This document shows, piece by piece, positions 1-54,729 of a stretch of DNA of 64,000 nt. Each line of letters begins with the position of its first letter. Positions within the stretch are counted from its first letter, which is position 1. This DNA is from Thermodesulfobacteriota bacterium (lineage in GTDB: Bacteria > Desulfobacterota_D > UBA1144 > Nemesobacterales > Nemesobacteraceae), in contig CBDAUE010000004.1 of assembly GCA_965200595.1 (NCBI GenBank), forward strand, positions 20,796-84,795, given 5' to 3'. The notes under the pieces are model-generated. The model saw nothing but the letters and a program-made list of their open reading frames with translations, was not told where the DNA came from and did not search any database. The translations under genes were made by a program, and so were the position numbers.

Positions 1-676
1 CCGCAGCCCCCATCCTCTGCCAGAAGGGAATAGCCTCGCGGGGATCATACCCAGCTTTTGCCATATATATGAGGCCTATCCTGTCAGCCTCTGATTCCTG
101 CTTTCTTGAAAACGGCAAAGCGACCGCAAGTGCCGTCCCCACTCCGTAGGCTGCAAGAACCCTGGACGTGGTTTTTTCGTCTTTTTTCTCCATGGAAGAC
201 GCAAGTGCCGCAGAGCCTATCTCAAGCAGAATTCCGAGACTGAGCCTCTCCCCTCCGTGGCGCGCCGTCGCATGGGCAACCTCGTGGGCCATCACTGTGG
301 CGAGTCCCGCCTCGGTTCTGGCAACGGGCAGCATCCCGGTGTAAACTCCGATCTTTCCCCCGGGAAACGCGAAGGCATTTACCTGCTTGCTGTCAAAAAC
401 GGTGTACTGCCACTTGAGGTTGGGCGTGTGGGAGACGGCGGCTATGCGCTGTCCGACCCTAGTCACGACCCTGTTGTAGTAAGTATTGCGCGAGACCCTC
501 TCGGTCTCGAGCAGATTTACGTACGCGCTTGCGCCGAGCTGCATTTCGAAGGCCTGCGGAAGGATTATAAACTGCGTCCTGTTGGTAATCGGAGCCTTTG
601 CGCAGGCAGCAATGACGAGCACAAAGAGCAGAACGCCGGCCGGAAAAAGAATCCCTCCTTTAAGTATCGATCTCAA
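1..676 (-). CDS. M48-family zinc metallopeptidase (BepA/YfgC-like), partial; the C-terminus runs off the window start. Absent from the ORF track because there is no in-frame stop inside the window.
   Basis: Manual minus-strand translation gives ...VNAFAFPGGKIGVYTGMLPVARTEAGLATVMAHEVAHATARHGGERL...EADRIGLIYMAKAGYDPREAIPFWQRMGAA. This shows an HExxH zinc motif and the M48 EAD...AGYDP motif. The N-terminus, MRSILKGGILFPAGVLLFVLVIAAC, looks like a lipoprotein signal; a TTG start near 674-676 is assumed. Confidence 0.6.
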   Translation of the reverse strand, partial: MRSILKGGILFPAGVLLFVLVIAACAKAPITNRTQFIILPQAFEMQLGASAYVNLLETERVSRNTYYNRVVTRVGQRIAAVSHTPNLKWQYTVFDSKQVNAFAFPGGKIGVYTGMLPVARTEAGLATVMAHEVAHATARHGGERLSLGILLEIGSAALASSMEKKDEKTTSRVLAAYGVGTALAVALPFSRKQESEADRIGLIYMAKAGYDPREAIPFWQRMGAA

Positions 677-755
677 CTTCCGCTAATCCCCCCGGACCCG
701 CAAGACTGCGAGCCCGGATGCAGGTAAAAACCCCTGGCCTTCTGTGAAAGTGATC

Positions 756-1925
756 TCAGGAAAGATCCGCTTCCTTCATTCTCTTCATGCCTTCGTCTAT
801 ATCGTCGTCAGAACACGCGTAGGTGACCCTTACGTAACCCTCCCCCTGGCTGCCGAAAGCCGTACCGGCAACCACGGCAACCGCCGCGCGCTCGACCAGC
901 CTGTCGGTAAACTCCTGGGATGTAAGTCCCGTTCCGGAGATGTCGGCAAAAGCGTAGAACGCTCCGTCTGGGGTATCGCAGGTTATGCCCGGAACACTGT
1001 TGAGTCCGGCAACCATGCGGTCCCTTTTCTGCTCAAGCAGAACCAGTTTGTTATCGACCCATTCCTGCGGTCCCGTGAGCGCGGCGTGCGCCGCTTTCTG
1101 TATGAACGCCGCCACGTTTGTGATTGAGTCCTGAAGGAATATGGAGAGCTGATCGACAACCGGTTTGGGAGCCACTGTCCAGCCTATTCTCCACCCCGTC
1201 ATCGCCCAGGTCTTTGAGAACGTATCTATGCAGACCACCCTGTCTCGTATGCTCTCCATCGACGAGATCGACAGATGAGGCTTTCCGAAGGTTACCTGGG
1301 AAAATATCTCGTCGGATATGATCATCACCTGGGGATGGCGCTCAAGCATGTCGGCTATCTCCTGAGGGTTCTCCACAAGGTGGCCGTTCGGCCTCTGCGG
1401 CGTGTTTATGATCACAAGCTTTGTTCTCGGGGTGATGAGTTCTTCCAGTTTTTCAACATCAAACTGCCAGTCGGGCTTTGTAAGCGGGGTGTGCTTTATA
1501 ACAGCGTTTGCGTACTTTGCCCATACCTCATCGGGGGGATATCCCGGGTTCGGAAATATCACCTCGTCTCCGTCCCCAAGAAAGGTAAGAAGGTTCATAG
1601 TAAGGGAGTGCTTGGCTCCCGCAGTCACTATTACCTCATCAGGTTCCGTCGGTCTTCCCCGCTCAGCCATCTTCTCCGCTATGGCCTCCCGGAGCTCGGG
1701 GAGTCCCGGTCCCGGATCATACCTTACGTAGCCGTCTCTAAGCGCCTTCTCCGTAGCGTCAAGAACATGCTCCGGCGTATCAAAATCGGGTCCCCGGTAA
1801 TCACCCTTTTCAAAGTGAATGATCTTCTTGCCCGTTTTCTTCTCAAGTTCCCTCGCTACCCTCATGCTCGCCCACTGCTTGGGCGGAACAAAGTGCGAGG
1901 TGCGTGAACTGTAATTATATGACAT
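756..1925 (-). CDS. Pyridoxal-phosphate-dependent aminotransferase, class I/II (aspartate aminotransferase-like).
   Basis: A 389-aa ORF with the aminotransferase fold signature (SFSKTWAMTGWRIGW, with the PLP-lysine context) and NPxGxP-like regions. Confidence 0.85.
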   Translation of the reverse strand: MSYNYSSRTSHFVPPKQWASMRVARELEKKTGKKIIHFEKGDYRGPDFDTPEHVLDATEKALRDGYVRYDPGPGLPELREAIAEKMAERGRPTEPDEVIVTAGAKHSLTMNLLTFLGDGDEVIFPNPGYPPDEVWAKYANAVIKHTPLTKPDWQFDVEKLEELITPRTKLVIINTPQRPNGHLVENPQEIADMLERHPQVMIISDEIFSQVTFGKPHLSISSMESIRDRVVCIDTFSKTWAMTGWRIGWTVAPKPVVDQLSIFLQDSITNVAAFIQKAAHAALTGPQEWVDNKLVLLEQKRDRMVAGLNSVPGITCDTPDGAFYAFADISGTGLTSQEFTDRLVERAAVAVVAGTAFGSQGEGYVRVTYACSDDDIDEGMKRMKEADLS

Positions 1926-1960
1926 AACTCCTTTCCTCCATTAAATTTTTCTCAAAAAAC

Positions 1961-2599
1961 TTAAAGATCCTTGTTTATCAGCAGTCCTGAAGCAAGCTGC
2001 GAGAAAACCGCATCGGCCACCTCTTCTGCGTCCATTGAGAAATCATGATGAACCATTACCGCGCCCACGGCCCCGTAGAGCATCAGGGCGCGAAGTCTCG
2101 GATTCTGTCTCACAAAGCTTCCTTCATGTATGCCTTTTTCTATTATTTTTTCGTAGAGTCTCACCCGCCGGCTTCTCCATTTCTCGGTGAGCTCAAAATG
2201 CTCCTTAAGAAGATGAGTCTCATCCCGGCTCAATATGCGAAGCACCTTCAGGTTCTGTCTGTAAAAAGTGAATATGGCCGCAAGCAGCTTGCGGAGCTTA
2301 AGCACGGCCGGGTCGGAATCCTCCACTTCTTCATGCAGGAGCGCCTCTATGGCTTCAAAGCTTTCCTTAAGAATTTCGAGGTACAGATTTTCCTTGGAGG
2401 AAAAGTAGTTGTAGATGGTTCCCTTAGATACGCCCATCTCCTCCGCTATCTCCTCCATGGTGACTTCGTGGTAGCCCTTCTCGAAAAAAAGATTGGTTGC
2501 GGCCCGAAGTATTTCATCTCGGCGCCTGAATCTTCTAGATGCTTTCGAACTTGGCGTACTTGAATTTGCAACGCTACTGATCTGAACCATATTTCTCAC
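1961..2599 (-). CDS. TetR/AcrR family transcriptional regulator.
   Basis: N-terminal HTH region: FFEKGYHEVTMEEIAEEMGVSKGTIYNYFSSKENLYLEIL. Confidence 0.8.
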   Translation of the reverse strand: MRNMVQISSVANSSTPSSKASRRFRRRDEILRAATNLFFEKGYHEVTMEEIAEEMGVSKGTIYNYFSSKENLYLEILKESFEAIEALLHEEVEDSDPAVLKLRKLLAAIFTFYRQNLKVLRILSRDETHLLKEHFELTEKWRSRRVRLYEKIIEKGIHEGSFVRQNPRLRALMLYGAVGAVMVHHDFSMDAEEVADAVFSQLASGLLINKDL

Positions 2600-2792
2600 T
2601 CATTAACTGACTCGTCAGTCAGAATAACGATTTCTAAAAAAATTGTCAAGAAATTTTAAATCAATGTAAGAAGCAAATTAAGCAGGAGACAAGATCTTTA
2701 TTGTCGATCAGACAGCAGACCTGATCGACACAGTATCCGAGCACCTGCGTTTAGTCCCTAAGGCAGAAACGTAGATTCAGGACAACAACACT

Positions 2793-4721
2793 TCACCCAA
2801 ACGCTTTAGTGAGCACTGAATCAATCCGTTGCTTCAGTTCATTTCCGGTCCGCCCAAATCCGAGAAGACGGGATACAGCACGAATTTTTTCATCCCGTTC
2901 CATGGTTCCATTTTCCCTATCCACTATGGTTGCCGCGGCGAGAATTTCCAGTGGAGCAATGTAGTTCACATCCTTGATTGAGCCTTGCTCAGCGGAACGG
3001 TCTCGTACCGGTGGATTCTCTTTTTGTTCTGCGGTCATCCAAAAATTATAGGACTCCAGAAAAATACGGCCGTGATTTGAAGCTCGATCAAGACCGGAAA
3101 GAATATTGTCCCGTGCCGCCGAACTGAGCCTTGTTTTGGAACAAGCTTCAGCAATTCTCCGCACTACTACATCAGTGTGAACGGGGCCTTCTGTCTTTAC
3201 AATGTCAGCAACGATTTCAGCCATTCTGTCGGTGTCAGTTTCTTCAGGCTCAGCTTTAAGAACCGGCAATGGCTTGGTCTGTTGATAGGGAGGCATCTGG
3301 ATGCCGGGGGGCTTGTCCGGCAAGACTTCCGCCGGCACTAAAGGACTGGGAGGGGACGTGCCGGGGTTAGAGGTTGCTTTAGTTTCGTTGCTGCCCCTGA
3401 TGACATCAGCGGGAGTTGACAGTGAATTAACGGCATCCAGTGCTGCGTGTAATCGGCTGATTTCCGCCGGTCGGCGATAAAACCAGTCCGTGCTCCAAAT
3501 CCGGTGAAATTTCCAGCCAAAAGCTTCCAGAACTTCCTGTCGCAGACGGTCCCGTTCCCTTGCCCAAAGCGAGGAATGCCAGGTTGCACCATCGCACTCC
3601 ACCGCAAGAATATACTGGGCTGGGCGATTCAGATGACGAACACCGATATCAATTCGAAAGCCTGCACTGCAGACTTGTGGATCGGCATGATACCCATAAT
3701 CCTCGATAATGCGCATGACATCCTCCTCAAACTGGCTGTCAGCTCCTTGTCCTGTAGCAATTTTTTCCTCCAGTTCACCACTTTTGGCGAACTGCAGGAA
3801 ACGTTTTAAGATCCTGGGACCTTCCCTGCTGGTACGAGAGAGATCGATATCCGCCGGATCAAATGATGCGAAAATTTCACTTTGCAACCGCGCACGGGTG
3901 AACAGAACATTGAGCCTTCTTTCTCCTCCCTCACCATTGATGGGACCAAAATTCATCGATGACAGGCGTTCATCAGCCCTGTGAGGTCCGTAGCCGACAC
4001 TGATCATGATGACATCGCGCTCATCGCCCTGGACATTTTCTATGTTCTTGACGAACACATCTTCTTCTTTGCCTTCACGCAAAAATGCATCCAGGATTTT
4101 GTCGGTTCGCCGATGCATTTCCAGAACTTCTGTGATCATTTCGCTCTGGGCCTTGGAGAAAGCAACAATACCAACCGACCATGTGGGAAATTTCCGTGCA
4201 TGTGCCGCCAGTGCTTCAGCAATCTTCTCGGCTTCAATACGGTTGGTTCCAGCGCGTCCGCCGCCCTGACTTTTTGAGGAATAGACCCCGGACACCGGGG
4301 TAAATTTCAAACCAAACTCCGGATCGATTTGCAGTGGAGAAGGTGGAATGATCAGGCTGTTTTTGTAAAACTCTTCATTGGATACTCGGATCAGCGACGG
4401 GTCTTTTGACCGGTAATGCCATTTCAGCATGTTTGATCTCACACCGCGTGCCTCGCAAAGTGTCAGAATACTCTCGAGTTCGGTCGCCTTGGCCGTGGCC
4501 AGTTCGCTTGTGTCCTCGTCAGTATCAATATCATCAGCCAGTCTGTTGAAAAAATTAGTGGGCGGCTGCTGCTGCTGATCACCCACCACAACTATTTGAC
4601 TGACCCGCGCAATCGCACCGAGCGCATCTTCCGGCCTCACCTGGGAGGCTTCGTCAATGATGAGGAGATCAAAAGACAATATGCCTGGCGGGAGGAACTG
4701 AGCCACAGAAATAGGGCTCAT
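2793..4721 (-). CDS. C-terminal part of a giant DUF4011/SF1-helicase/Vsr-like endonuclease/DUF3320 protein (Hhe-like). It is frameshifted relative to the upstream part.
   Basis: Helicase motif II LLIIDEASQV, then VVVGDQQQQPP, then a Vsr/DUF559-like block ECDGATWHSS...RDRLRQEVLEAFGWKFHRIWSTDWF. It overlaps the upstream ORF by 53 nt in the +1 frame. Confidence 0.6.
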   Translation of the reverse strand: MSPISVAQFLPPGILSFDLLIIDEASQVRPEDALGAIARVSQIVVVGDQQQQPPTNFFNRLADDIDTDEDTSELATAKATELESILTLCEARGVRSNMLKWHYRSKDPSLIRVSNEEFYKNSLIIPPSPLQIDPEFGLKFTPVSGVYSSKSQGGGRAGTNRIEAEKIAEALAAHARKFPTWSVGIVAFSKAQSEMITEVLEMHRRTDKILDAFLREGKEEDVFVKNIENVQGDERDVIMISVGYGPHRADERLSSMNFGPINGEGGERRLNVLFTRARLQSEIFASFDPADIDLSRTSREGPRILKRFLQFAKSGELEEKIATGQGADSQFEEDVMRIIEDYGYHADPQVCSAGFRIDIGVRHLNRPAQYILAVECDGATWHSSLWARERDRLRQEVLEAFGWKFHRIWSTDWFYRRPAEISRLHAALDAVNSLSTPADVIRGSNETKATSNPGTSPPSPLVPAEVLPDKPPGIQMPPYQQTKPLPVLKAEPEETDTDRMAEIVADIVKTEGPVHTDVVVRRIAEACSKTRLSSAARDNILSGLDRASNHGRIFLESYNFWMTAEQKENPPVRDRSAEQGSIKDVNYIAPLEILAAATIVDRENGTMERDEKIRAVSRLLGFGRTGNELKQRIDSVLTKAFG

Positions 4722-7470
4722 GAGCAGAACAGGCGATCCGACGCATCATCGTTGGAGCCGCCTCTATAATCTTGCGAATCGGCCTGTGTTTGCGTTTTTT
4801 TGCCATCTCGCCGCGCAGAAACCCCATTTCACCGTCAGCACCTTTGGGCAACTGCCCTTGGTGTTGTGCGTGAATGAGGGCACGCACCTCCTCAAACCTG
4901 GTGTGGTCAAGTTCACGAAAAGCAGTGACCAGATCATGGCGGTTAAGTTTGGCGAGATCGTTCAGTTCCGGCTTGACGGTACGGGCGTACTCCCAACGGG
5001 CTTCGGCAACGGCATATCTGAACTCATCCACCATCGCGCTTTCCGCAAGACGTCCTTCCTGCAGAGCAGTGATCAGTGGCATCAGATCGGCTTTGTCCAG
5101 CGCCTTTACGGAATTCATCAGATCAACCCACTCAGAATACCGTTCCATGGATGAATGCATATCCTCAAATCTTTTCTGCAAAGGGACAAGAGAGTGCTGG
5201 CTCCTGTCTTCGGACTGCCTGGCATCCAGATCCAGACGGTTGAATATTGACTGCAAGACGTCTTCAGTTTTCGCAAGGACAGACTCAAGTTTTTGGTGAA
5301 TATCGCCGGCCTGCCGCTTAATGGAGCAGAGAATCGAGATCGTTTCATGACTGACTTCAGGCGCGGCGGCGAGAGCTCCACCTACCCACTTATGGGCTGC
5401 GATCAGGTTATTGAAAGCTGTACTTTCACCGCGCCATTCCGTCCCCAAAACTGTGCGGAGGTATTCCTCTTCCCGGGCAAGCTCTGCGCGCAGTCTGCGG
5501 ACGGATTGCAATTGGTCCACCAGAGCCAACCGTTCAGACGGTTGCTTCGGAAGTGCGATACGAAGCAATGTGGCAAGTTCATTCGAAGCACTCCGATAAC
5601 GGCCAAAAAGTCGAGACCAAAACGAACCTGCACCTTGGGCAATATTGCTGCGAATGTCATCAATCGGGGCTGACCATGCTGCTTCTTGGAATGTGTTCTG
5701 AACCTTGGAGTGTTCTTGCCGCCACTGCTGTCCGATTTCCAAAGCTTGCGGCAGACGGGGTTCGTCTCTGCGGGCAAGAAATGCTTCTACAAGTGTTGCC
5801 GGAATGTCCGGTGCGGATATCGCCATGCCCAACAGAATATGTAACCGCTTCGCTTCGGAGATATTTTCAGGGTGAGGACAGACAAGACGCTGGGCAGCTT
5901 CGGCGGCGGTATCGACAAGGCTCCGGACTGTCTGAATGACATCAGTCAGCTCTTTTTCCAGTCGTTGCAACTCTGTCGGTTGCAAAGCAAGCTCGCCCAC
6001 TCCAAAAAAAGGGTGTTTGTTCACCGCGCCTGCTTTGCGGCGTTTGCTCAGAAAGGATTCGATGACGTTAACTATCTCGTCTCGCTGGGAGTTGCACAGG
6101 TCTGCAAGGCTGCTGTTTTTGAAATCGGGTGCGGAGACATCTCGACTGATAAATCCCGATATATCGTTCATCACCGAAAACGGGCTGTAGTCTCGTTCGG
6201 GCAGGAGTTCATGAATGGTATCGGCAATCTCGTTGAGCCGTTGTCTTGCCGCATGCAACTTGTCCGGCTCATCTGACGCTGCGGTTTTTACGTAGCCGGC
6301 ATCCAGAGTCCTCTTTAACTCCTCCAAGACGGCTTTTTTGTTTGCCTTGCGAGAATGCAGTTCCAAACATATGTCCGCAAGACCGACTTTGTGCAAGCGA
6401 CGATGGACCACCTGCAAGGCTGTCATCTTCTCAGCTATAAACAACACTGATTTGCCGTCATGCACTGCGGCCGCAATCATGTTGGCAATAGTTTGCGATT
6501 TGCCTGTTCCGGGAGGGCCCTGTACCACCAGGCTCATGCCGGCACGTACTTCCTCAATCACTTCAGTTTGGGACGCATCCGCATCCACTACCTGAATCAG
6601 GTCTGTGGGCTTGAATTTTGAATCAAGCCTCTCTCCATCCTGCAGTAATGACGGCTGGTGCGGGAAACCATCTCGCAGGAGGCGCTGCAGCAGTTTGTTT
6701 TCCTGCAAGTTGGATTCTTCCCAATTTTCGGGATCAAGGTCATGCAGCATCAAGAACTTGGCAAACTTGGCAAAAGAGAAAAATCCCAGCTGCATGCCGT
6801 CTGATTCAATCTTCCATCTCTGTTGGGTGGCAATGGCGGCCTTGACGGCGGCAAAATATTCTTCTGGAAACCAGTCGGCACTGTCGTCAATATCGGGAAA
6901 CCTGACTCCGAAGTCTTTTTTCAAGCGTTCCTGCAGCGGCAGATTGGTGGAGATATCGTCATCTAATGAACTTAGCCGAAAGCTGCCGTCACCGTCATTT
7001 CGTACAAGCTTCACGGGCAGGAGAATCAGCGGAGCAGTACGCGGAATCTGTGACGACTTATCCTCGTACCATTCCAAAAAACCCATCGCAAGGTAGAGAA
7101 TATTGACTCCCTGTTCCTCTTCCGCAGTGCGGGCATCTCTGTAGAGTTTTAACAGTTTGCGGTACAACACTTCGGGTCCTAAGGGTGTTTCCAGAACATT
7201 ATCCCGGTAACGGGAAACATCCACCTCGTTATCGGGCGAGATGTGCATATCGTCATCTATTTGGTTGTCGTCCTGGGCCGTACCCAGAAATTTCATAGAC
7301 CTGCCATTGATCCGCAAGATCTCGAAAATATCTTTCGTACGTTCGTTAATCACTTTGATGTCATTGCCCCTGCGGCTTTCTCGGTTTACATGGATTAAAC
7401 GATTTCGCGTACCGGTATCGACCAGTTTTCTCTGCGCATCTCGGAGTAGTTCTTGAATGGTCTTGGTCAT
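4669..7470 (-). CDS. N-terminal part of the same giant helicase: DUF4011-like region plus the Walker A half of an Upf1-like SF1 ATPase.
   Basis: N-terminus MTKTIQELLRDAQRKLVDTGTRNRLIHV is typical of DUF4011 proteins. Walker A is VVQGPPGTGKSQTIANMIAAAV. The ORF ends 22 codons after the other frame opens. Confidence 0.6.
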   Translation of the reverse strand: MTKTIQELLRDAQRKLVDTGTRNRLIHVNRESRRGNDIKVINERTKDIFEILRINGRSMKFLGTAQDDNQIDDDMHISPDNEVDVSRYRDNVLETPLGPEVLYRKLLKLYRDARTAEEEQGVNILYLAMGFLEWYEDKSSQIPRTAPLILLPVKLVRNDGDGSFRLSSLDDDISTNLPLQERLKKDFGVRFPDIDDSADWFPEEYFAAVKAAIATQQRWKIESDGMQLGFFSFAKFAKFLMLHDLDPENWEESNLQENKLLQRLLRDGFPHQPSLLQDGERLDSKFKPTDLIQVVDADASQTEVIEEVRAGMSLVVQGPPGTGKSQTIANMIAAAVHDGKSVLFIAEKMTALQVVHRRLHKVGLADICLELHSRKANKKAVLEELKRTLDAGYVKTAASDEPDKLHAARQRLNEIADTIHELLPERDYSPFSVMNDISGFISRDVSAPDFKNSSLADLCNSQRDEIVNVIESFLSKRRKAGAVNKHPFFGVGELALQPTELQRLEKELTDVIQTVRSLVDTAAEAAQRLVCPHPENISEAKRLHILLGMAISAPDIPATLVEAFLARRDEPRLPQALEIGQQWRQEHSKVQNTFQEAAWSAPIDDIRSNIAQGAGSFWSRLFGRYRSASNELATLLRIALPKQPSERLALVDQLQSVRRLRAELAREEEYLRTVLGTEWRGESTAFNNLIAAHKWVGGALAAAPEVSHETISILCSIKRQAGDIHQKLESVLAKTEDVLQSIFNRLDLDARQSEDRSQHSLVPLQKRFEDMHSSMERYSEWVDLMNSVKALDKADLMPLITALQEGRLAESAMVDEFRYAVAEARWEYARTVKPELNDLAKLNRHDLVTAFRELDHTRFEEVRALIHAQHQGQLPKGADGEMGFLRGEMAKKRKHRPIRKIIEAAPTMMRRIACSAHEPYFCGSVPPARHIVF

Positions 7471-7705
7471 ATTTAGAACATTACGAATGGAATGATTATT
7501 GTGAATAATATTTCTGATTTACATTGACTACGCCACTTGGTTTACCGCCCGGGTGATAGGCACAGAATGAGCCCGTATTTTGCGGAATTCATCACATGAT
7601 TTTTAAGTATCACCAACCGAATGTATATAAGTCCCTATTTTTTGTGTCCTCAAAGATTCCAAGGGGAATTTTTCTGGTACATTCTTTAGTTAGGGAGAAA
7701 ATCAT

Positions 7706-8437
7706 ATGAGCATATGGGGGACAATAATCGGCGGCGCTGCGGGCTTTGCTCTAGGCGGTCCCATAGGAGCGCTGCTGGGAGCCATGGCGGGCCATGCGAT
7801 TGTCGGTACCGGCAAACGGCCGACCGACAAGCGCTCGAGAAAGCAGGTTGCCTTCACGGCCGGAGTCATAGTGCTGGCGGCCAAAATGGCTAAAGCCGAC
7901 GGGGTAGTGAGCAAAGAGGAAATCCTGGCCTTCCGAGAGGTGTTTCATCCGATCCTGAGAGACGAAGTAAAAGAAGCCGAGGTAGCCCGCATCTTCGATA
8001 TCGCCAAGAAAGACCCGGAAGGTTTTGAGTCCTACGCACAGCAGCTTGCCGAGATGTTCAGAGACAACCCCATGGTTCTTGAGGAACTTTTAAACTGTCT
8101 GTTCCTCATTGCCAAGTCCGATAATGTCTACCATCCCAAGGAAAACGAGTATCTTGAGAGCATAGCAAAGATATTCGGACTGAACGAAGCGGCGTTTAGG
8201 CGCATCCGCGCCGCACACGGCGTCGACAAGCCGGATCCGTATCTCATTCTGGGAGTGACAAGAGACATCTCCGATCGCGGACTTAAAAGCAAGTACCGCG
8301 AACTTGTCCGCGCACATCATCCGGACAACCTGATCGCCCAAGGTGTTCCCCAGGAGTTTATTGACACGGCAAACGATAAACTCGCGGTCATAAACGATGC
8401 CTACGACCGAATTGAGAAGGAACGAAAGACGGTCTGA
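7706..8437 (+). CDS. djlA: DjlA-like co-chaperone: N-terminal glycine-rich TM segment, TerB-like middle domain and C-terminal J domain.
   Basis: C-terminal DPYLILGVTRDISDRGLKSKYRELVRAHHPDNL (J domain, HPD motif). N-terminus GGAAGFALGGPIGALLGAMAG. Confidence 0.7.
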   Translation: MSIWGTIIGGAAGFALGGPIGALLGAMAGHAIVGTGKRPTDKRSRKQVAFTAGVIVLAAKMAKADGVVSKEEILAFREVFHPILRDEVKEAEVARIFDIAKKDPEGFESYAQQLAEMFRDNPMVLEELLNCLFLIAKSDNVYHPKENEYLESIAKIFGLNEAAFRRIRAAHGVDKPDPYLILGVTRDISDRGLKSKYRELVRAHHPDNLIAQGVPQEFIDTANDKLAVINDAYDRIEKERKTV

Positions 8438-8785
8438 TTCATTTGAGAACAGGAACGATGCCGGTTTTTACAGCGGCTTCAAGAATTATTTCCTGACTGA
8501 GCATGGGAAGTAATATTGAGGAAGATTCTTAAACTGAATGTGAAGAACTGAAAAACGCCTGCAAATTGGCCGCAAACGGCGTTATAAATTTCCCGAGCGG
8601 CAAAACAAACAATCAAGGCGCTCAGTGAGCGGGATGCGATGGAATCGAATTCAGAACCCTTAGAAAATCCAACCTTTATACAGGCTCAATTGTCGGTACT
8701 GTCCGCTTCCATTTAACCGCAGCTACAAAGCGCCTTTGATTGCTGGTATTTGTGCGCTATATGCCAGTGCAACTGCCCGGAATCT

Positions 8786-9088
8786 TTATTTCTTCTCTTT
8801 GTGCTTTTCTTTCTTGGCAGCCCAGGCATTCTTTACTTCTTCCTTTGTGAGATTGCCATCGCCATCAGCATCCATCTTGGCGAATTTCTCCTCCACGTGG
8901 GCCATAAACTCGGCTTTTGAGATAACACCATCTGAGTTTGCATCTTTTTTCTCAAACATCTTATCCATTTTAGCAGCCTTTCCGGGGCAATCTCTTTTCT
9001 CATCACAAGACCCGCAGTCTGCCGAGGCAACCGTCGCTCCTCCGATGAACAAAACCGCCAATATAGAAAACATAAATATCTTTCTCAT
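8786..9088 (-). CDS. Secreted EF-hand calcium-binding protein.
   Basis: Signal peptide MRKIFMFSILAVLFIGGATVASA. Two EF-hand loops: DANSDGVISKAEF and DADGDGNLTKEEV. Confidence 0.7.
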   Translation of the reverse strand: MRKIFMFSILAVLFIGGATVASADCGSCDEKRDCPGKAAKMDKMFEKKDANSDGVISKAEFMAHVEEKFAKMDADGDGNLTKEEVKNAWAAKKEKHKEKK

Positions 9089-9246
9089 TACACACCTCCA
9101 TGTGGTTTATAATTTCAGAGTTAGTTTACAGTTTATACCAATTAAAAAGCAAGACGGAAAACCTTGCGTGCTATGATTCCGTTTCCCCTTAACGCTTTTG
9201 ATTCAGGCTTTTTCATACATTATGAGGATTGGGGACGGACCTGAAC

Positions 9247-10567
9247 AGAAGTGGACCCCAAAAATCAGACAGCACCTTAAGTGTATTTCCTTGGTATTCT
9301 AAAAGAGTATACAGGAGGTACATAATGAAGAGTAAAAGACGTAATCATTCACCGCAGTTCAAGGCAAAGGTAGCGTTTTTGGCGGTAAAAGGAGACAAGA
9401 CAGTAGCGGAGCTTGCCCGGCAGTTTGAGGTTCATCCCAATCAGATAAGCATGTGGAAGAAGAAGCAGCTCGGCAACGCCGCGGACAAAGTGTTCGGCCA
9501 GGGGGCGGGCAGCAAGGCGGCGGGCGAGAGCAAGTACGTAAACCAGCTTGAATCCAAGGTGGGCCAGCTGACGCTGGAGAACGATTTTTTATCAAAGGCG
9601 CTCGGTCGGCAGCGGCGCAAGAAGTTGGTAGTGCGCGGCCGGGCACTTTCTTTGGTAAGGCAGTGCAAACTGCTGGATATAAATCGCTCAAATATTTACT
9701 ACAAACCTGTGGGGGTATCCCCGCAGGACGAAGAGATTATGAAGAAGATTGACAGGATCTACATTAAGTATCCGTTTAAGGGTTCAAGAAGGATGGTGTA
9801 CGCCCTTAAGGCACAGGGCGTACAGGTGGGCAGAAAGCGTGTTATGAGGCTTATGGGGATACGAGGGCTTGCTCCCGGCCCCCAGACTACAAAGAAAGGG
9901 GGAGCAGAGCACAGGATATACCCGTATCTGCTGCGGGGGAAGACTGTAGAGCTTCCCGGGCAGGTATGGGCGGCAGACATAACGTATATAGAGATGAGCA
10001 GGGGTTTTGTGTATCTGTGTGCGGTAATGGACTGGCACTCGCGCAAGGTTCTTAGCTGGAGAGTGTCTAACACAATGGACAGCAGTTTTTGCGTGGAGGC
10101 TCTGGAAGAAGCGCTTTACAAGTATGATAAGCCCGAGATATTCAACACCGATCAAGGAAGCCAGTTCACAAGTGAAGAGTTTACGGGAGTTCTTAAAGAC
10201 AGAGATATAAAGATAAGCATGGACGGCAAGGGAAGCTGGAGAGACAATGTTTTTGTGGAGAGGCTTTGGAGAAGTGTTAAGTACGAGGAAGTGTATCTGA
10301 TGGCCTATGAATCTGTTGCCTCTGCAAAGGCTGGTATAGGGAAGTGGATAGATTTTTACAATGAAAAAAGACCACATCAGGGGCTTGGAATGAAAACACC
10401 GGATGAGGTTTACTATGGTCTTGGGACAGCACAGAAGAATGTGGCTTGAAGCAATGAGACAAACAGAGCAGAGAGTTTATGGTTTTGGGAGTCTTAAAGA
10501 TGGTTATGCGTTGGTAGGAATACACTTAAGAAAACAAAAATGCTGTCTAAAAAAGGGGACCACCTCT
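9247..10567 (+). mobile_element. IS3-family insertion sequence, copy 1 (1.32 kb). This is an intact simple insertion.
   Basis: Imperfect terminal IRs: AGAAGTGGACCCCAAAAATCAGACAGCA on the left, and the reverse complement of the right end is AGAGGTGGTCCCCTTTTTTAGACAGCA. A 3-bp direct repeat AAC lies at 9244-9246 and 10568-10570. The same element occurs four times in the window. Confidence 0.9.
9325..10449 (+). CDS. IS3-family transposase, with OrfA-like HTH/leucine-zipper and OrfB rve DDE domains in one continuous 374-aa frame.
   Basis: MKSKRRNHSPQFKAKVAFLAVKGDKTVAELARQFEVHPNQISMWKKKQ... then ...WAADITYIEMSRGFVYLCAVMDWHSRKVLSW...NTDQGSQFTSEEF...RLWRSVKYEE. The track ORF starts at 9229, but that is outside the IS; the ATG at 9325 with RBS GGAGG matches the other copies. 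Confidence 0.9.
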   Translation: MKSKRRNHSPQFKAKVAFLAVKGDKTVAELARQFEVHPNQISMWKKKQLGNAADKVFGQGAGSKAAGESKYVNQLESKVGQLTLENDFLSKALGRQRRKKLVVRGRALSLVRQCKLLDINRSNIYYKPVGVSPQDEEIMKKIDRIYIKYPFKGSRRMVYALKAQGVQVGRKRVMRLMGIRGLAPGPQTTKKGGAEHRIYPYLLRGKTVELPGQVWAADITYIEMSRGFVYLCAVMDWHSRKVLSWRVSNTMDSSFCVEALEEALYKYDKPEIFNTDQGSQFTSEEFTGVLKDRDIKISMDGKGSWRDNVFVERLWRSVKYEEVYLMAYESVASAKAGIGKWIDFYNEKRPHQGLGMKTPDEVYYGLGTAQKNVA

Positions 10568-16523: not shown

Positions 16524-16631
16524 TGCTTAGAAAATCCGTATTCAGATGAATAAACCAGCGTGGTATCAGCAAGGACTTCCTGCGGCGGTGTATTGGTCCA
16601 ATCCCACTTGGCGGAGTAAAGATTCATGGAC

Positions 16632-17953
16632 AGAGGTGGTCCCCTTTTTTAGACAGCATTTTTGTTTTCTTAAGTGTATTCCCACCAACGCATAACCATC
16701 TTTAAGACTCCCAAAACCATAAACTCTCTGCTCTGTTTGTCTCATTGCTTCAAGCCACATTCTTCTGTGCTGTCCCAAGACCATAGTAAACCTCATCCGG
16801 TGTTTTCATTCCAAGCCCCTGATGTGGTCTTTTTTCATTGTAAAAATCTATCCACTTCCCTATACCTGCCTTTGCCGAGGCAACGGATTCATATGCCATC
16901 AGATACACTTCCTCGTACTTAACACTTCTCCAAAGCCTCTCCACAAAAACATTGTCTCTCCAGCTTCCCTTGCCGTCCATGCTTATCTTTATATCTCTGT
17001 CTTTAAGAACTCCCGTAAACTCTTCACTTGTGAACTGACTTCCTTGATCGGTGTTGAATATCTCGGGCTTATCATACTTGTAAAGCGCTTCTTCCAGAGC
17101 CTCCACGCCAAAAACTGCTGTCCATTGTGTTAGACACTCTCCAGCTAAGAACCTTGCGCGAGTGCCAGTCCATTACCGCACACAGATACACAAAACCCCT
17201 GCTCATCTCTATATACGTTATGTCTGCCGCCCATACCTGCCCGGGAAGCTCTACAGTCTTCCCCCGCAGCAGATACGGGTATATCCTGTGCTCTGCTCCC
17301 CCTTTCTTTGTAGTCTGGGGGCCGGGAGCAAGCCCTCGTATCCCCATAAGCCTCATAACACGCTTTCTGCCCACCTGTACGCCCTGTGCCTTAAGGGCGT
17401 ACACCATCCTTCTTGAACCCTTAAACGGATACTTAATGTAGATCCTGTCAATCTTCTTCATAATCTCTTCGTCCTGCGGGGATACCCCCACAGGTTTGTA
17501 GTAAATATTTGAGCGATTTATATCCAGCAGTTTGCACTGCCTTACCAAAGAAAGTGCCCGGCCGCGCACTACCAACTTCTTGCGCCGCTGCCGACCGAGC
17601 GCCTTTGATAAAAAATCGTTCTCCAGCGTCAGCTGGCCCACCTTGGATTCAAGCTGGTTTACGTACTTGCTCTCGCCCGCCGCCTTGCTGCCCGCCCCCT
17701 GGCCGAACACTTTGTCCGCGGCGTTGCCGAGCTGCTTCTTCTTCCACATGCTTATCTGATTGGGATGAACCTCAAACTGCCGGGCAAGCTCCGCTACTGT
17801 CTTGTCTCCTTTTACCGCCAAAAACGCTACCTTTGCCTTGAACTGCGGTGAATGATTACGTCTTTTACTCTTCATTATGTACCTCCTGTATACTCTTTTA
17901 GAATACCAAGGAAATACACTTAAGATGCTGTCTGATTTTTGGGGTCCACTTCT
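16632..17953 (-). mobile_element. IS3-family insertion sequence, copy 2, in inverted orientation. Its transposase is frameshifted.
   Basis: It has the same termini as copy 1: CCACTTCT at 17946-17953 and AGAGGTGG at 16632-16639. There is no target-site duplication (flanks GAC and CTT). Confidence 0.85.
16750..17875 (-). pseudogene. IS3-family transposase, frameshifted copy. The ORF track splits it into 267-aa and 118-aa pieces.
   Basis: Near-identical to the 374-aa transposase. The span is 1126 nt against 1125 nt in intact copies, implying a 1-nt insertion near 17072-17106. Confidence 0.8.
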
Positions 17954-18184
17954 CTTAAAAAGGGCGAAACAACGCTTGTAAGAGGATCTGACGGTGAAGT
18001 TGTCGGTGCCGCGCTAAGAACCAGAGACGGCGTTAAGCCGGTTTTCGTATCTGTTGGAAACAGAACCGATCTTGATACATCAGTTATGATTGCCCTTGAG
18101 TGTTCCCGCGGTCTCAGGATTCCCGAACCCACGAGGGTTGCCGACAAGTATGTTGGGTTGCTCAAAAAAGATGTGTGCGGATAA
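17954..18184 (+). pseudogene. nfi: Endonuclease V (nfi), C-terminal remnant truncated by IS3 copy 2.
   Basis: ...GVKPVFVSVGNRTDLDTSVMIALECSRGLRIPEPTRVADKYV matches the Nfi C-terminus (PLFIATGHR...GYRLPEPTRWAD in the E. coli enzyme). The ORF-track N-terminus is IS-derived. Confidence 0.6.
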
Positions 18185-39570: not shown

Positions 39571-40890
39571 AGAAGTGGACCCCAAAAATCAGACAGCACC
39601 TTAAGTGTATTTCCTTGGTATTCTAAAAGAGTATACAGGAGGTACATAATGAAGAGTAAAAGACGTAATCATTCACCGCAGTTCAAGGCAAAGGTAGCGT
39701 TTTTGGCGGTAAAAGGAGACAAGACAGTAGCGGAGCTTGCCCGGCAGTTTGAGGTTCATCCCAATCAGATAAGCATGTGGAAGAAGAAGCAGCTCGGCAA
39801 CGCCGCGGACAAAGTGTTCGGCCAGGGGGCGGGCAGCAAGGCGGCGGGCGAGAGCAAGTACGTAAACCAGCTTGAATCCAAGGTGGGCCAGCTGACGCTG
39901 GAGAACGATTTTTTATCAAAGGCGCTCGGTCGGCAGCGGCGCAAGAAGTTGGTAGTGCGCGGCCGGGCACTTTCTTTGGTAAGGCAGTGCAAACTGCTGG
40001 ATATAAATCGCTCAAATATTTACTACAAACCTGTGGGGGTATCCCCGCAGGACGAAGAGATTGTGAAGAAGATTGACAGGATCTACATTAAGTATCCGTT
40101 TAAGGGTTCAAGAAGGATGGTGTACGCCCTTAAGGCACAGGGCGTACAGGTGGGCAGAAAGCGTGTTATGAGGCTTATGGGGATACGAGGGCTTGCTCCC
40201 GGCCCCCAGACTACAAAGAAAGGGGGAGCAGAGCACAGGATATACCCGTATCTGCTGCGGGGGAAGACTGTAGAGCTTCCCGGGCAGGTATGGGCGGCAG
40301 ACATAACGTATATAGAGATGAGCAGGGGTTTTGTGTATCTGTGTGCGGTAATGGACTGGCACTCGTGCAAGGTTCTTAGCTGGAGAGTGTCTAACACAAT
40401 GGACAGCAGTTTTTGCGTGGAGGCTCTGGAAGAAGCGCTTTACAAGTATGATAAGCCCGAGATATTCAACACCGATCAAGGAAGTCAGTTCACAAGTGAA
40501 GAGTTTACGGGAGTTCTTAAAGACAGAGATATAAAGATAAGCATGGACGGCAAGGGAAGCTGGAGAGACAATGTTTTTGTGGAGAGGCTTTGGAGAAGTG
40601 TTAAGTACGAGGAAGTGTATCTGATGGCATATGAATCCGTTGCCTCGGCAAAGGCAGGTATAGGGAAGTGGATAGATTTTTACAATAAAAAAAGACCACA
40701 TCAGGGGCTTGGAATGAAAACACCGGATGAGGTTTACTATGGTCTTGGGACAGCACAGAAGAATGTGGCTTGAAGCAATGAGACAGACAGAGCAGAGAGT
40801 TTATGGTTTTGGGAGTCTTAAAGATGGTTATGCGTTGGTGGGAATACACTTAAGAAAACAAAAATGCTGTCTAAAAAAGGGGACCACCTC
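39571..40890 (+). mobile_element. IS3-family insertion sequence, copy 3.
   Basis: Same IRs as the other copies. Flanks are TAA and GTC, so there is no target-site duplication. The left flank is the IS1595 fragment and the right flank is the cas9 remnant. Confidence 0.9.
39649..40773 (+). CDS. IS3-family transposase (374 aa, intact).
   Basis: Near-identical to the copy at 9325-10449. Confidence 0.9.
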   Translation: MKSKRRNHSPQFKAKVAFLAVKGDKTVAELARQFEVHPNQISMWKKKQLGNAADKVFGQGAGSKAAGESKYVNQLESKVGQLTLENDFLSKALGRQRRKKLVVRGRALSLVRQCKLLDINRSNIYYKPVGVSPQDEEIVKKIDRIYIKYPFKGSRRMVYALKAQGVQVGRKRVMRLMGIRGLAPGPQTTKKGGAEHRIYPYLLRGKTVELPGQVWAADITYIEMSRGFVYLCAVMDWHSCKVLSWRVSNTMDSSFCVEALEEALYKYDKPEIFNTDQGSQFTSEEFTGVLKDRDIKISMDGKGSWRDNVFVERLWRSVKYEEVYLMAYESVASAKAGIGKWIDFYNKKRPHQGLGMKTPDEVYYGLGTAQKNVA

Positions 40891-41124
40891 TGTCTATGCA
40901 ACCGTCATACAGACGCACTGTTGAATCCTCAAATTCAGCATTGAGTCCGTTAAAAACCACAAATTGTCTACCCGAATAGGTGATCACATAAAAATATATC
41001 TCCCCTGATTTCCAGGGAGCTTTTCTCCAGCAGGGCCTGAATCGAGTCAATGCTCTGGATAGAACCTCTGCTTGCAGCAATTGCGAGAGCCCTAGCGGAG
41101 TAATAGAGTTGACAATCTTCCTAG
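40891..41124 (-). pseudogene. cas9: Degenerate continuation of the cas9 remnant between IS1182 copy A and IS3 copy 3.
   Basis: Minus-strand frames read RAKALGRLSTLLLR(stop) and ...QLYYSARALAIAASRGSIQS. These are co-linear with Cas9 residues about 125-160 (NmeCas9 [27 protein letters not shown]; SpyCas9 LIYLALAHMIKFRG). Low complexity, so this is tentative. Confidence 0.35.
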
Positions 41125-42660
41125 GAGTCTGTCGGGCTTTAGCGGTCATTTAATGTTAAAACAACGGTATCAAGATGTCTGAGAAGGAGAAGACAATGAG
41201 ACGGAGGTTTGTATCAGCAGACCGCAAGACGCCGCAGATGTTTCCGCCTACAATAGAAGAGTATCTGCCCGAAGACCATCTTGCCCGGTTTGTGGTGGAG
41301 ATAGTTGAGCAGCTGGATCTGAGAAGGCTGACGGAAGCGTATTCGGGCAGGGGGTCGGCAGCGTATCATCCGGGAATGAAGGTGGCTCTTCTGTTCTACG
41401 GATACGCGACGGGGACATTCTCTTCCCGGAAGCTTGAGAAGGCAACATATGACAGTGTGGCGTACAGGTATATATGCGCTAACAGCAATCCGGATCATGA
41501 CAGCATAAACAGGTTCCGCAAGAGGTTTGGCAAGGAGCTTGGGGTATTGTTTGTACAGATACTGCAGATAGCGGGACAGATAGGGATGGGCACGGTGAGT
41601 GTGGATGGCACGAAGATAAAGGCTAATGCGAGCAGGCATAAGGCACTGAGCTGGAAGAGGGCAAGGAAGATAGAAAAGCAGCTGAACAAAGAAGTGAAGG
41701 AACTGATGAGACTTGCACGGGAGGCTGACAACTCTAAACTGCCAGAGGATATGAATGTTCCCGAAGAACTTCAGAGACGGGAAGCGAAGCGTGAGATACA
41801 GGAGCGGGCAAAGCACAGGTATGAGCGGGAGTCAGAAGTGTACGGGGAGAAGGTAGAGAAGCGGGAACAGTATGAGAAGCAAAGCGGGAAGAAGGCAGGA
41901 GGGAGCAGACCGAGGGATAAGGATCAGGTGAATCTTGTGGACGGAGATTCGCGGATAATGCCTTCGGGAGGGGGATTTGAGCAGGCATACAACGCTCAGG
42001 GTGCAGTGGATGTGGAGAGCAGACTTATAGTGACCAGGCATGTAACGCAGAACACAAACGACAAGCGTGAGATGGAGCCCGTGCTTGAGCAGTTAAAGGA
42101 GAATGAGCAGAGGCTTGGCAAGGCTGAGAATCTGCTTGCCGACAGCGGATATTACAGTGCAAGCAACGTTAACTTATGTGACAGGGCGGGGATAAAGCCT
42201 TATATATCCAAACGCAGGGAGAAGCACAACAGACCGTTTTGGGAGAGATTCGCACAGTGCAATGAGGAGGAGAAAGAGCCGGCAACACCGGTTGAAGACA
42301 TGCAGAGGAGGCTTGGAACATCCGCAGGCAAAAAGATGTACTCAAAACGCAAGTCAACGATAGAGCCTGTGTTCGGAATAATGAAGCAGGTGATGGGATT
42401 CCGGCAGTTTATGGTGCGGGGGCTTGAAGCTGTGCGCGGAGAGTGGAATCTTGTGTGCATAGGGTACAACCTGAAGAGAATGTATGCGTTGAAGGGCTGA
42501 CAAAGAGGTGAGAGAGCAGAGAATATTGGGGATTTGAGGTAAAAACAGCTCCCCGAAGCTTAGCTGAACCCCCAAAATCAAGGATTTTTGCCGATATGAC
42601 TTTCACCAGCTCTGAATCAGTTGGATTTCCCCTCAATTGTTCGCTAAGAGCGACAGACTC
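41125..42660 (+). mobile_element. IS1182/IS5-like insertion sequence, copy A (about 1.54 kb). It is inserted into cas9.
   Basis: Terminal IRs GAGTCTGTCGGGCTTTAGCG on the left, with GAGTCTGTCGCTCTTAGCG as the reverse complement of the right end. Flanking CTAG at 41121-41124 and CTTG at 42661-42664 form a probable 4-bp target duplication with one mismatch. A second, inverted copy is at 54730-56265. Confidence 0.85.
41175..42500 (+). CDS. IS1182-family (IS5-like) transposase with a DUF772/InsH N-terminal domain.
   Basis: EDHLARFVVEIVEQLDL...AYSGRGSAAYHPGMKVALLFYGYATGTFSSRKLEKATYDSVAYRYICANSNPDHDSINRFRKRF. 441 aa. Confidence 0.85.
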   Translation: MSEKEKTMRRRFVSADRKTPQMFPPTIEEYLPEDHLARFVVEIVEQLDLRRLTEAYSGRGSAAYHPGMKVALLFYGYATGTFSSRKLEKATYDSVAYRYICANSNPDHDSINRFRKRFGKELGVLFVQILQIAGQIGMGTVSVDGTKIKANASRHKALSWKRARKIEKQLNKEVKELMRLAREADNSKLPEDMNVPEELQRREAKREIQERAKHRYERESEVYGEKVEKREQYEKQSGKKAGGSRPRDKDQVNLVDGDSRIMPSGGGFEQAYNAQGAVDVESRLIVTRHVTQNTNDKREMEPVLEQLKENEQRLGKAENLLADSGYYSASNVNLCDRAGIKPYISKRREKHNRPFWERFAQCNEEEKEPATPVEDMQRRLGTSAGKKMYSKRKSTIEPVFGIMKQVMGFRQFMVRGLEAVRGEWNLVCIGYNLKRMYALKG

Positions 42661-43036
42661 CTTGGGCTTTTGCTCTTGCTTTTGCTTTTGCTCTTATAGT
42701 GTAGGGGTCTCCAAGTCTGTTGAGTTCTTTTTCTGGAGAGAGATTGTTTTTAAGTTCTTCAGGAAGAAAACCTTTTAGAATCAGATAATTTCTGATGCGG
42801 CCTTTACGTCTGTTGCGGCGCTGTATCTGCCTCCTCTGAAGTCGCGATTCTCTTCGTTTCCTGTTCTTTGGGGTAGAAGATTTGTCTTCAATGGACCTGA
42901 TAAATATACGGCTTCCGCAGTCAATAAATTTCACGGGTTCTTTATTCTTTTCTTCTATAACGCTCCAGCCAATCGAATTTGTTCCTACGTCAAGTCCTAT
43001 AACATATTCTGGCAATTTACATCCTTTAGTACTCAT
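42661..43036 (-). pseudogene. cas9: Cas9 N-terminal fragment (about 125 codons: RuvC-I motif plus arginine-rich bridge helix), truncated by IS1182 copy A.
   Basis: MSTKGCKLPEYVIGLDVGTNSIGWSVIEEKNKEPVKFIDCGSRIFIRSIEDKSSTPKNRKRRESRLQRRQIQRRNRRKGRIRNYLILKGFL...LGDPYTIRAKA. Compare NmeCas9 [39 protein letters not shown]...ARRLARSVRRLTRRRAHRLLRARRLLKREGVL...NTPWQLRAAAL. RBS GAGGT precedes the ATG at 43034-43036. The last 7 residues of the track ORF are IS sequence. Confidence 0.75.
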
Positions 43037-54725: not shown

Positions 54726-54729
54726 CTAG

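Follow-up and report, generated by a model that had tools for sequence, protein, structure and literature searches.

A frameshifted PDC-S37-type helicase–nuclease gene, probably a pseudogene, in a Candidatus Dadabacteria-like genome

The 64-kb window, by which we mean the whole stretch of DNA analysed, carries on its minus strand a stand-alone helicase–nuclease gene that has, at a probability of about 0.8, genuinely become a pseudogene. It represents a known candidate defence family, PADLOC PDC-S37, and not a new system. The window copy is a member of this family by descent, not a functional member, and the locus has most likely ceased to serve any function.

Gene layout and the site of the break

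Two minus-strand open reading frames, of 933 aa (ORF1; 4669..7470) and 642 aa (ORF2; 2793..4721), overlap by 53 nt; both had been listed, with these lengths and positions, in a preliminary description made from the letters alone. When joined they yield a protein of approximately 1,559 aa, which is less than the approximately 1,870 aa given in that description, a figure that suits Hhe or ProA. Pfam matches are to DUF4011 (E=9e-40) and the N-terminal part of AAA_11 in ORF1, and to the C-terminal end of AAA_11, AAA_12, MTES_1575 (E=9e-34) and DUF3320 in ORF2. This supports the order proposed beforehand, namely DUF4011, Upf1-like SF1 helicase, Vsr-like nuclease and DUF3320, and the four motifs on which attention had been focused (GPPGTGKSQT, LLIIDEASQ, ECDGATWHSS and GWKFHRIW) were all found.

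The N-terminal 912 codons (4735..7470, minus strand) are homologous to the family, as judged by PDC-S37 profile positions 1-916, Pfam and an AF2 model (pLDDT 80.8). They specify the DUF4011 domain (aa 15-183; 6922..7428, minus strand; PF13195, E=9.4e-40, profile positions 1-158 of 158), the half of RecA1 that carries Walker A, and an insertion of approximately 480 aa that is entirely helical. Walker A itself (GPPGTGKSQT, aa 318-327; 6490..6519, minus strand) is intact and occupies invariant alignment columns. The C-terminal 646 codons plus stop (2793..4733, minus strand) lie in the +1 frame and specify motifs II–VI, RecA2, the nuclease and a wHTH tail; ORF2 as called starts at an internal ATG (4721). 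Motif II/Walker B (DEAS; 4644..4655, minus strand) is intact in this second frame. The Vsr-like PD-(D/E)xK nuclease domain (MTES_1575; 3438..3731, minus strand) keeps all of the conserved ECDG...H...RERDR...W.F.R.WS.DW residues, and the DUF3320/winged-helix C-terminal region (2802..3254, minus strand) is recognized by a match to PF11784 and by the ORF2 model, in which residues 490-640 are confidently helical. DUF3320 is known to overlap wHTH domains (PMC3710099). The motor possesses the features of Upf1-like SF1B helicases, that is, Walker A, motifs II, III, V and VI, and the RecA1/RecA2 fold; the nuclease is characterized as Vsr-like by the MTES_1575 match, the acidic and histidine core, and the Vsr fold.

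ORF1 aligns with positions 1-916 and ORF2 with positions 922-1532 of the single 1,550-position PDC-S37 profile. Among the 120 best homologues, 118 are single polypeptides of approximately 1,550-1,850 aa, the two exceptions being ORF1 itself and a 1,400-aa protein on a short contig; a split gene is thus atypical of the family. These data bear out the earlier proposal that the two ORFs are one frameshifted gene, and do not bear out a reading in which they are ordinarily separate genes. The frame switch had been placed near 4669-4745, between Walker A and motif II, and alignment with homologues pins it to 4734. Here, as three-frame translation also reveals, the conserved Lys913 codon has been reduced to a lone G, a net change of -2, which lies between the Ile912 and Pro914 codons (ATC-G-CCT; 4731..4737, minus strand). 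Lysine is conserved at this position in at least 90% of 109 homologues. Across the junction all homologues read ...QRIKPVxLMSP..., whereas the window reads RRI-(g)-PVLLMSP; a 2-bp deletion (AAG to G) is the most parsimonious event. From this point ORF1 continues out of frame as ACSAHEPYFCGSVPPARHIVF before a stop (4669..4734, minus strand); three-frame translation reveals no homology for this tail in its own frame, where homologues have KPVxLMSPISVAQFLPPG. The frameshift at 4734 supports the earlier statement that a single-chain helicase cannot be produced from this locus.

Genomic slot and the question of an immune role

The gene is the sole occupant of a 5.0-kb lineage-specific slot (2653..7654), which was delimited by blastn against the related loci L004, L006 and L007 and by gene maps. 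Homology to related genomes ends at 2652 on the tetR side and restarts at 7655 on the djlA side, the slot being situated between djlA and a tetR-aminotransferase pair. In these relatives, which share 82-84% nucleotide identity in the flanks, the slot contains DUF4403 and PIN/Phd toxin-antitoxin genes, and near it are found HipA, DndB, and an SNF2/SWIM helicase or a giant DEAD/UvrD helicase. The GC content of the slot (50.5%) is barely different from that of the whole window (47.8%). No direct or inverted repeats were found at the ends of the 5-kb slot, and there is therefore no sign of a transposon or an integrase-borne cassette. The djlA-tetR slot may represent a defence hotspot of Dadabacteria. 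The affiliation of the genome, which is that of an uncultured marine-type bacterium, was deduced indirectly from PNPase, whose closest named matches (87-90% identity) come from "Candidatus Dadabacteria bacterium".

The TetR gene does lie immediately downstream, as previously described. It was considered as a regulator of the helicase and rejected, since relatives without the helicase keep it together with the aminotransferase. It possesses its own promoter (TTGACA-17-TATTCT) and an operator-like palindrome, both within the conserved flank. To judge from the sequence comparison, TetR is a core neighbour and not a partner of the helicase gene.

A cas9 remnant and IS-rich surroundings had also been reported, and both were confirmed in the window, where the cas9 stump proves to have been cut by an IS; housekeeping genes look intact. 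No CRISPR array is present in the 64-kb window, and an Rfam search of the window returned three tRNAs only and no RNA element near the gene. The loss of immunity functions suggested in the preliminary description is plausible, but it rests on two genes in one window. An IS-laden lineage may be actively shedding immunity during a change of lifestyle, with its cas9 cut by an IS and its PDC-S37 gene frameshifted.

One question is whether the family is immune at all. If PDC-S37 proteins serve instead in DNA repair, recombination or mobile-element maintenance, the locus would still be a pseudogene, and its loss would say nothing about immunity. PDC-S37 is a candidate only, for which our literature search found no functional study or other experimental paper; its nearest named relatives, by comparison, have either been annotated as anti-phage or validated as such (Hhe and ProA). 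The large DUF4011 gene of Pseudomonas aeruginosa is a conserved core gene, present in every isolate and not island cargo (PMC10250203). The family has a very wide distribution (more than 7,600 homologues). Homologues are carried by 434 plasmids, which fits an accessory over a core role. One of five neighbourhoods (L012) is without recognisable defence genes, whereas four of the five intact homologues examined adjoin defence, toxin-antitoxin or mobile-element genes (KAP NTPase, GmrSD, integrases, RES-Xre and JetD), a location in defence or accessory islands that is in keeping with PDC-S37, and in the relatives the slot discussed here holds toxin-antitoxin cargo. A non-immune family is a rather unlikely reading.

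Authenticity of the frameshift and signs of decay

The frameshift could also have arisen through sequencing or assembly, the organism itself having an intact PDC-S37-type gene. The sequence comes from a contig of 450,856 bp assembled from a metagenome, a single lesion breaks the frame, the joined sequence scores as high as intact homologues, and a GATC site, on which some long-read basecallers err, overlaps the lesion. Yet two nucleotides are lost, outside any homopolymer; the ORF overlap has a single homopolymer (TTTT, 4671-4674), and this lies 60 nt away from the lesion. The Logan assembly of SRR33960554 (three samples), which is k-mer-based and built from raw reads, contains the exact 933-aa product including its out-of-frame tail, on a contig that matches the window at 100% identity over 9,273 bp, although this contig and the NCBI contig are not proven independent because the Logan run may be the source data of the latter. 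At the level of assemblies, the disruption relative to 109 aligned intact homologues is reproducible. Among 5.8 billion protein clusters there was no allele more than 56% identical, and no intact one. With the further oddities described below, which do not break the frame and fit relaxed constraint, we consider it quite improbable that the organism has an intact gene.

The first of these oddities is a perfect 9-nt tandem duplication (TTTGCCAAG x2; 6757..6774, minus strand), revealed by alignment, which adds FAK in frame within a conserved segment; of 110 sequences, only this one has it. The second concerns motif III (4566..4577, minus strand), which alignment reveals to consist of (CAG)4, giving GDQQQQPP where homologues have GDxKQLPP; both of the replaced residues (K967Q and L969Q) are at least 98% conserved. 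At invariant columns the window gene deviates six times, whereas homologues do so at most 4 times (median 0); at columns that are at least 98% conserved it deviates 17 times, versus 6.7 predicted from nearest-neighbour identity (z=4.6). Judged by sequence, the duplication, the motif III changes and the excess of replacements at conserved sites indicate relaxed constraint of the kind expected of a pseudogene, extending beyond the disabling lesion; the excess of unusual residues could come in part from the isolated position of the gene in the tree. Every catalytic motif but motif III is kept in the joined protein. Any decay is recent and mild, because the joined protein scores like intact homologues and only this one motif has suffered. 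The additional unique lesions, the lack of a homopolymer and the agreement of the second assembly together make a sequencing error an unlikely source of the frameshift.

It is highly improbable that the split gene still functions, whether by +1 ribosomal frameshifting (for instance at UUU-UGA, 4669-4674, with re-pairing of tRNA-Phe) or by reassembly of two chains. The GUC UUU UGA U at the ORF1 stop does resemble a prfB-type +1 site, and a shift at UUU-UGA would join the frame of ORF2 just before DLLIIDEASQ, but only by exchanging the near-invariant KPVxLMSPISVAQFLPPGxxxF for 21 unrelated residues; moreover, no Shine-Dalgarno-like stimulator lies upstream of UUU-UGA, and no slippery sequence exists at the true lesion. 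A prfB-like programmed +1 frameshift was rejected, the site being 60 nt downstream of the lesion and the conserved segment not being restored; programmed frameshifting and transcriptional slippage were likewise rejected because the lesion has no slippery run. ORF2 does start with an ATG, but no other homologue among those listed is split, RecA1 is interrupted by the break, and the orphan RecA1 fragment is modelled poorly in ORF2 alone (pLDDT 30-60). A living locus, in the form of a +1 fusion with a remodelled 21-aa linker or of a reassembled or regulated split PDC-S37 effector, or else the defence-hotspot or immunity-shedding reading, has but a slender chance of being correct.

If the locus is a genuine pseudogene, as we favour, the intact protein of approximately 1,559 aa would have comprised DUF4011, an Upf1-like SF1B helicase with the RecA1 insertion of approximately 480 aa, a Vsr-like nuclease and winged-helix modules for DNA binding (DUF3320). 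Intact members would likely act alone, the helicase motor presumably loading on and tracking along foreign nucleic acid, which the Vsr-like nuclease would cut. Absence of the gene from relatives suggests horizontal gain into a variable accessory slot of a Candidatus Dadabacteria-like host. Inactivation came through the 2-bp deletion in the Lys913 codon, which parts Walker A from motifs II–VI, and neither split product has a complete ATPase domain; the 9-nt duplication, the motif III substitutions and the conserved-site replacements arose later than, or alongside, the deletion.

For annotation, the locus should be entered as one PDC-S37-type (Hhe/ProA-related) pseudogene, not as two hypothetical proteins nor as an active defence system, and it should not be credited in DefenseFinder or PADLOC tallies for this genome. 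The lesion is recent and single, and restoring two bases gives a full-length PDC-S37 sequence of an uncultured phylum that might be synthesised for a test of this candidate family. With the IS-truncated cas9 there is a further anecdotal case of decay among accessory immune genes in a genome rich in IS copies whose housekeeping genes stay intact; a genome-wide trend is beyond the reach of one 64-kb window. Outside annotation the significance is slight.

Comparison with PDC-S37, Hhe, ProA and Upf1-like helicases

The PADLOC search called for in the preliminary description gives as best match PDC-S37 (PDLC05009), a single-gene "phage defence candidate", to which the joined protein aligns collinearly over the full profile (1,720.7 bits; positions 1-1532 of 1,550). 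This is indistinguishable from the scores of intact homologues (1,720-1,839 bits), and the length class (approximately 1,550-1,590 aa) and Pfam architecture are common to both. The window copy differs in its frameshift, its 3-aa duplication and its degenerate motif III, and thus lacks the single uninterrupted ORF of approximately 1,550 aa. Phage genomes contain only three weak partial homologues, and a search of genome contigs with ORF1 retrieved only two distant loci (33-38% identity), in a Bdellovibrionales MAG and a Sericytochromatia MAG.

The architecture had earlier been equated with that of Hhe (NCBIfam NF042953, "DUF4011 domain-containing anti-phage protein Hhe"; PADLOC PDLC02194). The likeness stands insofar as Hhe also unites DUF4011, an Upf1-like SF1 helicase and a Vsr-type nuclease in one gene; the identification does not, the NCBIfam Hhe score being 914.6 bits, where the curated cut-off is 2,000, with the best stretch covering only approximately positions 1063-1688 of the 1,797-position profile. 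The window protein is also some 250-350 aa shorter. Intact members of its clade miss the cut-off as well (930-944 bits); the clade is sister to Hhe and is not Hhe. Hhe protects against lambda, T3, T7 and PhiV-1, and its nuclease-site mutant E1731A is inactive (bioRxiv 10.1101/2022.06.16.496414).

The best NCBIfam match is to ProA (NF058533, "anti-phage protein ProA"), at 1,318.6 bits and collinear over positions 355-1903. The helicase, nuclease and DUF3320 regions of the window protein all align with it, but the score is under the 1,500-bit cut-off and approximately 350 N-terminal ProA positions are missing here. A literature search did not find the paper defining ProA.

Among eukaryotic and archaeal Upf1-like SF1B helicases (Upf1, Sen1/SETX, IGHMBP2 and Dna2), sequence matches in the PDB are to SMUBP-2, Upf1, Sen1 and Dna2, of which Dna2 is, like the window gene, a helicase-nuclease fusion. 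The Vsr-like nuclease is here fused to a motor protein, and it gives no sign of T:G mismatch specificity. The window gene differs from the helicase group in the Vsr-like type and C-terminal place of its nuclease and in the helical insertion of approximately 480 aa in RecA1, and its DUF4011 and wHTH modules are without counterpart in these helicases.

A helicase-nuclease gene divided between two frames

Two overlapping minus-strand ORFs of 933 aa (ORF1; 4669..7470) and 642 aa (ORF2; 2793..4721) were recovered by ORF listing with the positions and sizes of the preliminary description, and the motifs quoted there are all present in their translations. ORF1 matches the Pfam families DUF4011 (E=9.4e-40) and AAA_11 (helicase profile positions 3-74), and ORF2 matches AAA_11 (positions 213-253), AAA_12, the REase domain MTES_1575 (E=9.2e-34) and DUF3320. 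Since the N-terminal part of AAA_11 lies in ORF1 and the C-terminal part in ORF2, a single helicase domain is shared out over both. The PADLOC profile PDC-S37 (1,550 positions), a single-gene defence candidate, is covered at 1-916 by ORF1 and at 922-1532 by ORF2. The protein obtained by joining the frames across the junction is ~1,559 aa, and not ~1,870 aa as first proposed, a figure which probably corresponds to the size of Hhe.

This split is abnormal for the family: among the best 120 of more than 7,600 homologues in a protein search, 118 are single polypeptides, usually of 1,550-1,600 aa (~1,840 aa in a subgroup with an internal repeat), the exceptions being ORF1 itself and a 1,400-aa protein on a short contig. 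Over the junction the homologue consensus is M-V-Q-R-I-K-P-V-x-L-M-S-P-I-S-V-A-Q-F-L-P-P-G; here frame 0 reads TMMRRI and thereafter nonsense (ACSAHEPYFCGSVPPARHIVF, then a stop), while frame +1, starting at the next base but one, reads PVLLMSPISVAQFLPPG. The DNA is CGG ATC G CCT GTT (4740-4728), with a lone G at 4734 in place of the near-invariant Lys913 codon; aligning the ORFs to their homologues, the check proposed earlier, pinpoints the indel. The most parsimonious lesion is a 2-bp deletion (AAG to G), and it is the only one in the gene that breaks the frame.

No homopolymer is found at the lesion; the sole one in the ORF overlap (TTTT, 4671-4674) lies 60 nt away. The identical 933-aa product, including its out-of-frame tail, is present on a 450,856-bp NCBI/ENA contig, and the exact product is also carried by a Logan contig from run SRR33960554, found in three samples. 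The latter shares 100% identity with window positions 9273..1 and stops at the start of an IS copy, as expected of k-mer assembly. Neither an intact allele nor any match above 56% identity was found among 5.8 billion protein clusters. As this support is at the assembly level, and the two assemblies may share one sample, there is a small residual chance that the frameshift is an artefact. The UUU-UGA that closes ORF1 (4669-4674, minus strand) would formally permit slippage by +1 into the frame of ORF2, and is judged coincidental because it stems from Phe-Asp codons conserved in the true frame.

Decay within the gene and across the window

The joined protein was aligned with 109 intact homologues (110 sequences). 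Of the 233 otherwise invariant columns, 6 are changed in it (homologue median 0, maximum 4), as are 17 of the 353 columns at least 98% conserved (median 2, maximum 12). Because the window sequence forms the outgroup to the homologues, deviations were regressed on nearest-neighbour identity; for the latter columns 6.7 are predicted (z=4.6), and equally isolated sequences have 6-12. Among the deviations are K967Q and L969Q in helicase motif III (GDQQQQPP vs GDQKQLPP in homologues), the QQQQ being encoded by a (CAG)4 repeat at 4566-4577. A perfect 9-nt tandem duplication (TTTGCCAAG twice; 6757-6774) adds FAK within a conserved segment, an insertion found in no other of the 110 sequences. The remaining catalytic motifs are all preserved and the profile scores match those of intact homologues, so inactivation was recent. 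We conclude that the locus is a true pseudogene, inactivated not long ago, from a family catalogued as a defence candidate.

The cas9 remnant reported earlier is real. This 5′ stump is a 130-aa ORF (42644-43036, minus strand) in which the first ~120 aa supply the Arg-rich bridge helix and RuvC-I (DVGTNSIGW) and match TIGR01865 at positions 1-100 of 1,070 (E=2.8e-24). The stump is cut off at 42666 by a 1,546-bp IS, the remainder of cas9 is missing, and no CRISPR array occurs within the 64-kb window. This IS (DDE_Tnp_1/DUF772 transposase) is present as two inverted, 100% identical copies (41121-42666 and 54724-56269), which could permit inversion of the intervening 12 kb. Four copies of an IS3-family element (~1.33 kb; HTH_Tnp_1 and rve) lie at 9244-10567, 16625-17956 (reverse complement), 39571-40898 and 52488-53811; they are 99-100% identical, indicating recent transposition. 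The second has a small discontinuity near 17109-17113, and its transposase ORF is shortened. The six copies make up ~13% of the window, in line with the IS richness described before. A short minus-strand ORF (53920-54354) matching only an IS1595-type transposase zinc ribbon is probably a transposase remnant.

Full-length matches to Pfam families were obtained for approximately 35 housekeeping ORFs, including the cox operon, mreBC, PBP2, rodA, pnp, truB, infB, era, hisIE, miaA and carA; decay within the window is therefore limited to accessory genes. This pattern, observed in one window, is consistent with the proposed loss of immunity and fits it without proving it.

A variable slot between djlA and tetR

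The window PNPase is 87-90% identical to proteins labelled 'Candidatus Dadabacteria bacterium'. Related genomes (contigs of 1.66-1.92 Mb; flanks of 82-84% nucleotide identity) share an aminotransferase-TetR pair at one flank and DjlA at the other, homology ending at 2652 and restarting at 7655. In all five related loci examined (L004-L008, ~6880-9041 in locus coordinates) the slot holds DUF4403 and a PIN/PhdYeFM toxin-antitoxin pair, and the helicase is absent; the DUF4403 gene encodes 476-500 aa. Farther along, the relatives possess HipBA and differing large helicase or Dnd genes, which marks the region as a variable accessory/defence area. Between the EF-hand gene and djlA, relatives (L004, 2744-6068) carry a sigma-70 factor, a small ORF, a Metal_resist protein and HipBA, where the window has merely 263 nt (8438-8701), a second accessory-content difference adjoining the helicase slot.

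The tetR gene belongs to the core and has a putative promoter of its own upstream, a sigma-70-like TTGACA-17-TATTCT (2649-2621, minus strand) followed by a palindrome, CTGACTgacgAGTCAG, which is probably the TetR operator; both (2611-2649) fall in the flank conserved with relatives. A hairpin with a 10-bp stem (TGTCGATCAG n9 CTGATCGACA; 2698-2726), ~70 nt 3′ of the helicase stop codon, lacks a well-defined T-tract and is possibly what remains of a terminator. Elsewhere, intact homologues neighbour KAP NTPases and integrases, GmrSD and Fic, a methylase, DUF1156/DUF499-HEPN, RES-Xre or JetD; one neighbourhood (L012) was uninformative. Homologues of ORF2 occur on 434 PLSDB plasmids at <60% identity.

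Putative function and relation to Hhe and ProA

The ORF2 structure was predicted with a pLDDT of 73.7, the RecA2, nuclease and winged-helix regions being confident and the orphan RecA1 fragment (residues 1-130) poor. The component domains and the break are directly visible; comparison with Hhe and with enzymes of the Upf1 and Dna2 types suggests that the intact protein would be a stand-alone effector whose SF1B motor would move along nucleic acid and whose Vsr-like nuclease would cut DNA, the wHTH modules presumably adding DNA binding. For DUF4011 and the helical insertion, sensing or regulation is a possible role. Here DUF4011, Walker A and the insertion would reside in the ORF1 product, and motifs II-VI, the nuclease and wHTH in that of ORF2, should it be translated at all; the ATPase site is incomplete in both.

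MTES_1575 was introduced as a new type of REase with a Vsr fold, and an overlap of DUF3320 with wHTH domains is described (PMC3710099). Hhe is active against lambda, T3, T7 and PhiV-1, as summarised in a preprint, and its E1731A mutant loses weak T7 protection (10.1101/2022.06.16.496414). A large DUF4011 gene in P. aeruginosa is a core gene beside a defence hotspot (PMC10250203), which counsels caution in a defence reading. A literature search found no papers on PDC-S37 or ProA.

The joined protein was scored alongside intact homologues (P0002, P0012, P0045 and P0120). With the PADLOC profiles, which have no curated cut-off, it reached 1,720.7 bits for PDC-S37 (1-1532 of 1,550; intact homologues 1,720-1,839) and 642.7 bits for Hhe at partial coverage (636-654). 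In longer homologues (P0034, P0049, P0120 and others; ~1,835-1,846 aa) the ~280 additional residues appear to be an internal repeat in the helical insertion, as PDC-S37 matches them in two stretches. For NCBIfam ProA (NF058533; cut-off 1,500) the score was 1,318.6 bits, over profile positions 355-1903 only (intact homologues 1,292-1,345), and for NCBIfam Hhe (NF042953; cut-off 2,000) 914.6 bits, the best stretch being 1063-1688 of 1,797 (930-944). The preliminary reading as a frameshifted Hhe-like gene is partly right, its observations holding except for the length. Judged by these profiles, the clade is catalogued solely as the candidate defence family PDC-S37. Because intact homologues likewise fall below both NCBIfam cut-offs, it represents a shorter sister of the longer ProA and Hhe proteins.
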